Positions 9,001 through 11,842 of a stretch of DNA of 64,000 nucleotides are shown here, piece by piece (position 1 is the first letter of the stretch; every line of letters starts with the position of its first letter). Where the stretch lies: assembly GCF_053078305.1 (NCBI RefSeq), contig NZ_CP166879.1; one strand, given 5' to 3'. Position numbers: made by a program.

Positions 9001-11842
9001 GCGATTGCGCGTCGCGTGCTTTTTGGCTTCCATACTCTCAAATACCAGCGAAGAAGCGCGCTGAATCACGCTATTTACCGCGCCGAGAGTGTATTTTTTG
9101 CTGCGTCCTGCATTCACCAGTTGAGTATCAAGCTTTTTGTCCGCCATGTCGGGATTCCTGTTTTTATACGTCTGGATGTCTAAACTAGCATGAATATTCG
9201 CGGGCGCATCCTGAAGAATTGGCATAAAGCAGAAAATTTTCGCAAATGGCGTGCTGGTGACTTTTTTACTGCGTAAACGCAAGGAAAAGAAAGCAAAGGT
9301 ACGGCAGTATGCAAATAGTAATGAGAACGACTATCAATTCGACGTCGTTTTGATATTATTATGCGCAGATTTTGTGACTTGCGTCCTGGAGATACACAGT
9401 GGGTAATAATTTAATGCAGACGGACCTTTCCGTCTGGGGTATGTATCAGCACGCTGATATTGTCGTTAAGTGCGTGATGATTGGGCTTATTTTGGCCTCC
9501 GTAGTCACTTGGGCAATCTTCTTCAGTAAGAGCGTAGAGTTCTTCAATCAGAAGCGTCGCCTTAAGCGCGAGCAGCAACTGCTGGCTGAAGCGCGTTCCT
9601 TAAACCAGGCCAACGATATCGCCGCTGATTTTGGTAGCAAAAGCTTAAGCCTGCATTTGCTCAATGAAGCGCAGAATGAGCTGGAACTGTCAGAAGGCAG
9701 CGACGATAACGAAGGTATTAAAGAACGTACCAGCTTCCGTCTGGAGCGTCGGGTCGCCGCAGTAGGTCGTCAAATGGGCCGCGGTAACGGCTATCTGGCA
9801 ACCATCGGCGCGATTTCGCCGTTCGTTGGTCTGTTTGGTACGGTCTGGGGCATCATGAACAGCTTTATTGGTATCGCGCAAACGCAGACTACTAACCTGG
9901 CAGTCGTTGCGCCGGGTATCGCAGAAGCTCTGTTAGCAACGGCAATCGGTCTGGTGGCAGCGATTCCGGCGGTCGTTATCTATAACGTATTCGCGCGTCA
10001 GATTGGCGGCTTTAAAGCGATGCTGGGTGATGTCGCAGCGCAGGTATTGTTGCTGCAAAGCCGTGACCTGGATCTGGAAGCCAGCGCCGCTGCGCATCCG
10101 GTTCGTGTCGCACAAAAATTACGTGCAGGATAATGTCCGATGGCAATGCATCTTAACGAAAACCTCGACGATAACGGCGAAATGCATGATATCAACGTGA
10201 CGCCGTTTATCGACGTGATGTTGGTTCTGCTGATTATCTTTATGGTGGCGGCACCGTTAGCGACGGTAGATGTGAAGGTTAACTTGCCTGCTTCTACCAG
10301 CACGCCGCAGCCGCGCCCGGAAAAACCGGTTTATCTGTCGGTGAAGGCAGACAACTCGATGTTTATCGGTAACGATCCGGTCACCGATGAAACAATGATT
10401 ACGGCGTTGAATGCGTTAACCGAAGGTAAGAAAGACACCACCATCTTCTTCCGTGCAGATAAGACCGTCGACTATGAGATGTTGATGAAGGTAATGGATA
10501 AGCTGCATCAGGCGGGTTACCTGAAGATAGGTCTGGTCGGCGAAGAAACCGCCAAAGCGAAGTAAAGTAGAATTGCCTGATGCGCTACGCTCATCAGGCC
10601 TACAAAATCTATTGCAACATGTTGAATCTTCGTGCGTTTGTAGGCCGGATAAGGCGTTCACGCCGCATCCGGCATTAGGTGCTCAATGCCTGATGCGCTA
10701 CGCTTATCAGGCCTACAAAATCTATTGCAACATGTTGAATCTTCATGCGTTTGTAGGCGGATAAGGCGTTTTCGCCACATCAGGTAAGAGTGAATTCACA
10801 ATGATGCCCGGTTGCTTTTCACAACCGGGCATTTTTTTAACCTAAATGCTCGCCGCCGCACACACCGTGCACTTCTGCGGTGACGTAGCTCGACTCCTGA
10901 CTTGCCAGATAAACATATAAAGGGGCCAGTTCCGCCGGTTGCCCCGCACGTTTCATCGGCGTTTGCTGACCAAACTGCGGGATCTTATCCTGCGTTTGTC
11001 CGCCGGAAATTTGTAGTGCCGTCCAGATAGGGCCTGGCGCGACAATATTCACCCGAATACCTTTCTCCGCGACCTGTTTTGCCAGGCCACGGCTGTAGTT
11101 CAGAATCGCCGCCTTCGTAGCCGCATAGTCCAGTAAATGCGGACTTGGCTGGTATGCCTGGATTGACGAAGTGGTGATGATACTTGCACCTTTCGGTAGC
11201 AGGGGGATCGCTTCCTGGGTTAGCCAGAACAGCGCGAAAACGTTAATGGCAAAGGTCTTTTGAAACTGTTCGCTGGTGAGGTCTGCAATATCCGGAATGG
11301 CAACCTGTTTCCCGGCGACCAGCGCCATAATATCCAGCCCGCCTAAGGCCTTATGCGCTTCGTGAACTAGCGAACGGGCAAATTTCTCATCGCTTAAATC
11401 GCCTGGCAGCAGAACGGCTTTGCGTCCGCATTCTTCAATGATCTTTTTCACATCCTGAGCGTCTTCTTCTTCCACGGGAAGATAACTGATCGCCACGTCA
11501 GCCCCTTCACGCGCGTAAGCGATGGCGGCAGCGCGACCGATTCCGGAATCGCCCCCTGTCACCAGGGCTTTACGATCTTTCAGGCGACCGCTACCAACAT
11601 AGGTTTTCTCGCCGCAATCCGGTACCGGTGTCATCTTCGCCTGGATGCCTGGCGTCGGTTGTTTCTGTTTGGGATATTCACCAGTGTAATACTGCGTGGT
11701 CGGGTCTTTTAAATGAGACATCGTTTTTCTCCCTTCAGGTTCAACGTCCTTTAAGGGTAGACGCTCTCGATGCGTTGATAAGGGAACCAGGAAGATCCCT
11801 AACCCTCAGAATTATGCGACAAAGGTTTAACGGATATGTTGA

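Follow-up and report, generated by a model that had tools for sequence, protein, structure and literature searches.

The conserved 27-bp block upstream of exbB in an Escherichia coli genome very probably serves as the Fur operator of the exbBD promoter

The stretch of 64,000 nucleotides analysed here (contig NZ_CP166879.1 of RefSeq assembly GCF_053078305.1; hereafter the window) carries the exbB and exbD genes of Escherichia coli. Their products form the motor that draws on the proton-motive force to supply power for all TonB-dependent uptake of siderophores, vitamin B12 and colicins, and the control of this motor by iron through Fur is textbook knowledge. There is little doubt that the exbBD promoter has its Fur operator in a 27-mer, aaatagtaatgagaacgactatcaatt, located at 9313-9339 and hence 60-86 bp 5' of the exbB GTG start codon (9399), and is repressed through it when iron is sufficient. 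This operator is already known, since the same site has been published for E. coli K-12, and confirming it adds nothing new to E. coli biology; the example does illustrate that an unaided reader can correctly locate an operator that resembles its consensus weakly. The original prediction, made by eye, had placed an AT-rich, Fur-like element upstream of the exbB GTG within 9300-9398, and the 27-mer falls inside that interval. The sites that make up the operator are as follows.

9313-9339, no strand assigned: conserved operator block AAATAGTAATGAGAACGACTATCAATT, an array of GATAAT-like hexamers in the pattern F-F-F-x-R, counted from one hexamer upstream at 9311 (GCAAAT AGTAAT GAGAAC g ACTATC)
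9320-9338, no strand assigned: core Fur site, a 9-1-9 inverted repeat AATGAGAAC-G-ACTATCAAT centred on 9329, at -70 from the exbB GTG
9317-9335, no strand assigned: site in the classical 19-bp Fur-box register, 13/19 to GATAATGATAATCATTATC, 9.3 bits, rank 15 in the window
9323-9341, no strand assigned: second, overlapping classical-register site 6 bp downstream, 12/19, 9.0 bits, rank 16 in the window

The sites were scored with palindromic Fur matrices of 19 bp in two registers, 9-1-9 (consensus AATGATAATCATTATCATT) and classical, whose training set consisted of 16 E. coli regions with footprint or gel-shift evidence, exbB being left out (coordinates from Chen et al. 2007, PMC2189734; regions taken from NC_000913.3, each with a recognisable Fur box). 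With the 9-1-9 matrix, AATGAGAACGACTATCAAT (9320-9338) scores 17.2 bits and ranks first among the ~64,000 positions of the window. The exact tail probability of this score is 5.6e-7 per position, corresponding to 0.036 expected occurrences per 64 kb and to P ~0.002 in an AT-rich intergenic region of 250 bp, and 14 of 200 windows simulated with a first-order Markov model attain it at any position. Within the intergenic region between exbB and the divergent gene metC, the best site under both matrices lies in the 27-mer. The Fur-like signal is real and exceeds chance. Weaker positive 9-1-9 sites start 6 and 12 bp upstream (9314 and 9308), so that the three sites together span 31 bp (9308-9338), and the 7-1-7 reading of the core, TGAGAAC-G-ACTATCA, agrees with TGATAATnATTATCA at 11 of 14 positions. 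When each verified training region was scored in leave-one-out fashion, the values ranged from 8.0 to 28.9 bits (median 20.7), and the exbB site surpasses the tonB (12.6) and fur (8.0) promoter sites. The exbB Fur site is therefore a real one, of middling strength, and counting matches to the consensus (13/19) sets too low a value on a site that takes first rank with a register-aware matrix.

Published binding data agree with this site. At the exbB promoter, Chen et al. 2007 (PMC2189734) described a cluster of three overlapping Fur sites across 31 bp, the strongest of which (19.1 bits, coordinate 3150076) lies at -70 from the start codon and overlaps the box proposed from a consensus match by Eick-Helmerich and Braun in 1989; Fur at 150 nM gel-shifted an oligonucleotide carrying the exbB promoter but not a proposed exbD site. 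The centre of the matrix site in the window (9329) agrees with this gel-shift-confirmed site to within 1 bp, and the 31-bp span of the three matrix sites reproduces the 31-bp cluster of three walkers. Since 9100-9450 is 100% identical to the corresponding segment of K-12 MG1655, in reverse orientation, the operator shows no difference from the K-12 Fur box and represents a known site in another E. coli strain. Binding in vivo has been mapped by chromatin immunoprecipitation with exonuclease digestion (ChIP-exo), in which a peak at exbB was Fur-bound in the iron-replete condition only (PMC10164565). Converted to window coordinates through the MG1655 exbB start, this peak reaches into the operator at its upstream edge.

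9293-9315 (+/-1 bp), no strand assigned: Fur ChIP-exo peak P95, assigned to exbB (NC_000913.2 3150091-3150113; PMC10164565 Dataset 2)

Expression data point in the same direction, as the core Fur regulon shared by nine E. coli strains includes exbB and exbD, and deletion of fur derepresses them by 1.9-5.5 log2 units (PMC10164565). Both genes are also members of Fur's direct regulon in CFT073 and MG1655, and exbD is co-regulated with exbB, because both are derepressed in fur deletion strains. In addition, exbB mRNA is among the candidate targets of the small RNA RyhB found jointly by MS2-affinity purification coupled with RNA sequencing (MAPS), CopraRNA, and RNA interaction by ligation and sequencing (RIL-seq) (review PMC7154689), and exbB may thus be under both Fur and the Fur-controlled RyhB. 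The expectation that a Fur operator would be found upstream of exbB is borne out by the matrix score, the gel shift, the iron-replete ChIP-exo signal and the derepression in fur deletion mutants, and the two comparisons suggested with it (a weight matrix scan and the mapped exbB site) lead to the same bases: the best site of the exbB upstream region, which is also that of the whole window in the 9-1-9 register, sits inside the 27-mer. A site above threshold was thus found where it was predicted and, in the 9-1-9 register, no better one elsewhere; the top classical-register match of the window (61187-61205) is unrelated to exbB.

The operator is also nearly invariant. A total of 80 exbB loci were compared, one genome per species, comprising 67 from Enterobacterales and 13 from Pseudomonas; identity was computed with one locus per genus for 31 genera, which range from Escherichia to Photorhabdus and Arsenophonus. 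The pattern AAATAnTAATGA[G/T]AA[C/T]nACTATCAA[T/A] occurs upstream of exbB in 67/67 Enterobacterales loci, and mean identity in the block 9313-9339 is 0.93, compared with 0.45-0.52 in the flanks. Only 9318, 9325, 9328 and 9329 are variable; the last of these, the centre of the palindrome, is the sole position without a preferred base, and the other three vary more narrowly. Within E. coli, 9100-9450 is matched in 5,422 of 5,426 complete genomes, in 5,372 of them at an identity of at least 99%. Approximately 22% of complete genomes (1,199/5,412) depart from the window sequence at some point within 9305-9365, and in each of the three variant genomes fetched the sole difference is a G to A change at 9347, the one common E. 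coli polymorphism in this interval; the position lies outside the operator, in the variable spacer between it and the -10 element, in a column that also varies between genera.

Downstream of the operator stands a second invariant block, TTTGnTATnAT. All 67 Enterobacterales loci carry the motif TGnTAnnnT past the 19-mer, at 12 nt in 61 of them and at 14 nt in 6, with the hexamers TATTAT, TATGAT and TATCAT, so that the operator and a putative extended -10 promoter are conserved as a unit across 31 Enterobacterales genera. The predicted promoter elements are listed below.

9351-9359, plus strand: putative extended -10 element TGaTATTAT (TG at 9351-9352, hexamer TATTAT at 9354-9359), assigned from conservation
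9331-9336, plus strand: putative weak -35 element CTATCA, 3/6 match, 17-bp spacer, wholly inside the Fur 19-mer
9365-9398, plus strand: predicted transcription start (~9365-9368) and short 5' leader, placed by the geometry of the conserved -10 element
9388-9391, plus strand: Shine-Dalgarno sequence GGAG, conserved in the alignment

This arrangement suggests how repression might operate. When iron is sufficient, Fe2+-Fur dimers would bind the 9-1-9 repeat at 9320-9338 and probably also the weaker overlapping hexamer repeats that reach upstream to ~9305-9311. In a sigma-70 promoter of the extended -10 type, the operator would thereby cover both the -35 region and the spacer upstream, and because of this coverage Fur bound at 9320-9338, centred near -37, would be expected to exclude RNA polymerase and reduce exbB-exbD transcription. 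Exclusion of RNA polymerase is the standard mechanism of Fur. Iron starvation would in turn free the promoter of Fur and supply more ExbB-ExbD motor for TonB-dependent siderophore uptake. The transcription start, the -35 assignment and promoter occlusion are all inferred from the overlap and spacing of these elements.

Several observations weigh against the identification of the block as a Fur operator or against the promoter drawn around it. The exbB site stands in the lower range of true sites, as 14 of the 16 training regions outscore it and it exceeds only two. Its best fit to the classical consensus is just 13/19, an imperfection that had been recognised beforehand; 19 window positions reach at least 13/19, so that consensus counting is not significant by itself, and a consensus search of the window allowing at most three mismatches misses the exbB site, returning 61187-61205 as its sole match. 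The ChIP-exo peak P95 is displaced upstream from the site centre by 15-37 bp, compared with 0-20 bp from the Chen site centres for peaks at other Fur loci of the same table. The promoter is an assignment from conservation, and a strict sigma-70 promoter scan reports no plus-strand promoter in the intergenic region; an exbB transcription start is also absent from the supplements of Kim et al. 2012. Finally, C9331, A9337 and the AAATA at 9313-9317 are invariant although they do not belong to the Fur consensus, and Fur alone offers no obvious explanation for this. A known RNA element does not explain the conservation either, since scanning 8900-9700 against Rfam at E<=1 gave no family matches.

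The invariant bases are the starting point for the reading in which the exbB operator is a hyper-constrained composite element, in which Fur shares the 27 bp with a second factor (some other DNA-binding protein) or with RNA polymerase contacts of a -35 or UP-like kind that are unusually stringent. Such sharing would account for the order-wide invariance of the non-consensus bases, with the block at 93% and the flanks at 45-52%, in a setting where verified E. coli Fur sites differ widely among themselves, and the putative -35 hexamer does lie inside the block. A second regulator is, however, indicated neither by the present analyses nor by the cited literature, and two or three Fur dimers overlapping the -35 region may suffice; the composite reading is considered unlikely. 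Overlap with polymerase contacts or the binding of several Fur dimers may explain the invariant non-consensus bases, and a second factor is the less likely explanation. A more radical possibility is that the AT-rich block reflects nothing other than the architecture of the exbB promoter (UP element and -35), with an incidental likeness to the Fur box and indirect regulation by iron. The 13/19 match, equalled or bettered throughout the window at 19 positions, would fit this account, as would the model of McHugh et al., which detects no site here (as reported in PMC2189734). Against it stand the shift of the exbB site by purified Fur, the cross-linking in vivo only when iron is replete, the first rank of the 9-1-9 site in 64 kb, and a pattern of variation typical of a dimer palindrome, in which the centre base has no preference and both arms are nearly fixed, and the account is very improbable.

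Two further alternatives were considered. Because the element lies within a 251-bp intergenic region shared by metC and exbB, it might control metC instead of exbB. The block stands 166-192 bp away from the metC ATG, tandem MetJ-like boxes (9166-9181) of metC itself lie beside its start codon, and the spacing between the block and both the -10 element and the start codon of exbB is fixed in all genera, whatever the upstream sequence, all of which makes control of metC highly implausible. Even slighter is the chance that the block is conserved as part of a small open reading frame (ORF) of 51 residues with a GTG start at 9251-9406, which appears in a mechanical ORF list. Conservation there is limited to two short blocks with unconserved sequence between them and is palindromic rather than codon-like, and the indels of the leader are not multiples of three; the non-codon-like conservation and the indels led to the rejection of this ORF as a gene. 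The Fur operator of the exbBD promoter thus remains by far the most probable identity of 9313-9339.

Among the classical promoters of TonB-dependent uptake that Fur represses, those of tonB, fhuA, fepA-fes, cirA and fecA resemble the exbB promoter in carrying a 19-bp AT-rich inverted repeat with overlapping sites spaced by 6 bp over the core promoter, which at exbB is a predicted one, and in being repressed by holo-Fur when iron is replete. The exbB promoter differs from them in its middling site and in what appears to be an extended -10 element with a poor -35. In Pseudomonas, the exbB homologues have an AT-rich palindromic box (AACAAGAATTACTTGCAAT and variants) in 13/13 loci (L080-L092), which scores 9.9-17.1 bits with the E. 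coli matrix and is probably their own Fur box. It lies ~330-470 bp upstream of the match, differs in sequence and lacks a TGnTAnnnT motif at the same spacing.

In a number of genera, among them Serratia, Yersinia, Photorhabdus and Dickeya, the operator apparently lies 280-580 bp upstream, and in-frame upstream start codons are found there. Such in-frame starts, ~200-480 nt (commonly 200-330) 5' of the ExbB-homologous region, occur in Pectobacterium, Brenneria, Dickeya, Rahnella, Serratia, Yersinia, Xenorhabdus, Photorhabdus, Providencia and Arsenophonus (L044-L046, L049-L050, L058-L064, L066, L068-L075, L077-L079). The ExbB of Serratia has an N-terminal extension with a signal peptide-like sequence, which places the operator ~80 bp before the probable true start. 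A different promoter architecture in these genera was rejected, as the N-terminal extension of ExbB explains the distance (checked in Serratia only); the Fur operator and the -10 element hold their position relative to the longer exbB gene.

The genes on either side of the operator are the following.

9147 (ATG), minus strand: metC (cystathionine beta-lyase), profile match, MG1655 b3008
9399-10133, plus strand: exbB coding sequence, GTG start, 244 residues, TIGR02797 at 344 bits against a cut-off of 206, MG1655 b3006
10140-10565, plus strand: exbD coding sequence, 141 residues, NF008429 (ExbD) at 284.6 bits, MG1655 b3005

The predicted interval sits within the gap between the divergent metC and exbB, and exbB and exbD are separated by 6 bases. 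The TIGR02797 score and the MG1655 annotation agree with the original identification of the GTG-start gene as exbB. Just upstream of the metC ATG, the sequence ATACGTCTGGATGTCT at 9166-9181 forms a tandem MetJ-box-like repeat that matches two AGACGTCT units at 13/16 positions; it is the sole such match in the window (0.1 expected) and presumably corresponds to the MetJ operator already known for metC. At 9262-9287, ~100 bp upstream of the putative exbB transcription start, stands another conserved block, TTTTTTACTGCGTAAACGCAAGGAAA, with the palindrome TGCGT-AA-ACGCA. Its sequence ACTGCGTAARCGCAAGG is exact in 11 of the non-K-12 loci fetched, and it aligns across ~13 genera of Enterobacteriaceae, though not in Erwiniaceae and beyond. 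The block loosely resembles a CpxR-type repeat, GTAAA-N5-GTAAA.

Other Fur-like matches are scattered across the window. The best match to the classical consensus, at 61187-61205 (16/19, with a classical-register score of 16.9 bits), falls within a gene for a gspG-like type II secretion pseudopilin, where 61187-61208 supplies the codons for GNDYQY, and it looks like a coding-driven match rather than a promoter operator. An assignment of this match to the Fur site of yqjH was rejected, as coordinate mapping puts yqjH outside the window. Several moderate matches to the Fur matrices (6.8-13.2 bits) are clustered at 14874-15041, the region from yghW to upstream of hybO (MG1655 3146345-3146512), and the ChIP-exo peak P94 (3144508-3144520, NC_000913.2), assigned to hybO, maps onto them (PMC10164565). 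The second-best 9-1-9 match, AATGAAAACTAAAGTCATT at 43769-43787 (14.8 bits), falls at the MG1655 glcG/glcF junction (3124214-3124232) and is probably due to chance, with 0.14 such matches expected per window.

The window as a whole is not colinear with K-12 MG1655, as 40-mers sampled from ~20000-23000, 28000-39000 and 48000-64000 are not matched exactly in the MG1655 region that corresponds to them; the window therefore comes from an E. coli strain other than K-12. Type II secretion ORFs resembling gspE, gspF, gspG, gspH, gspI, gspJ and gspK occupy 58-64 kb, and no MG1655 counterpart of them was found. The ExbB protein itself (WP_000527844.1) is labelled 'tol-pal system-associated acyl-CoA thioesterase' in every non-K-12 RefSeq record returned from the Prokaryotic Genome Annotation Pipeline (PGAP) (H1-H10, L094-L096), a label that stems from the description of the NCBIfam model NF007722 (PRK10414). 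The same protein likewise passes TIGR02797, the exbB equivalog, and is named Ton complex subunit ExbB in MG1655, and NF007722 looks like a mislabelled family model.

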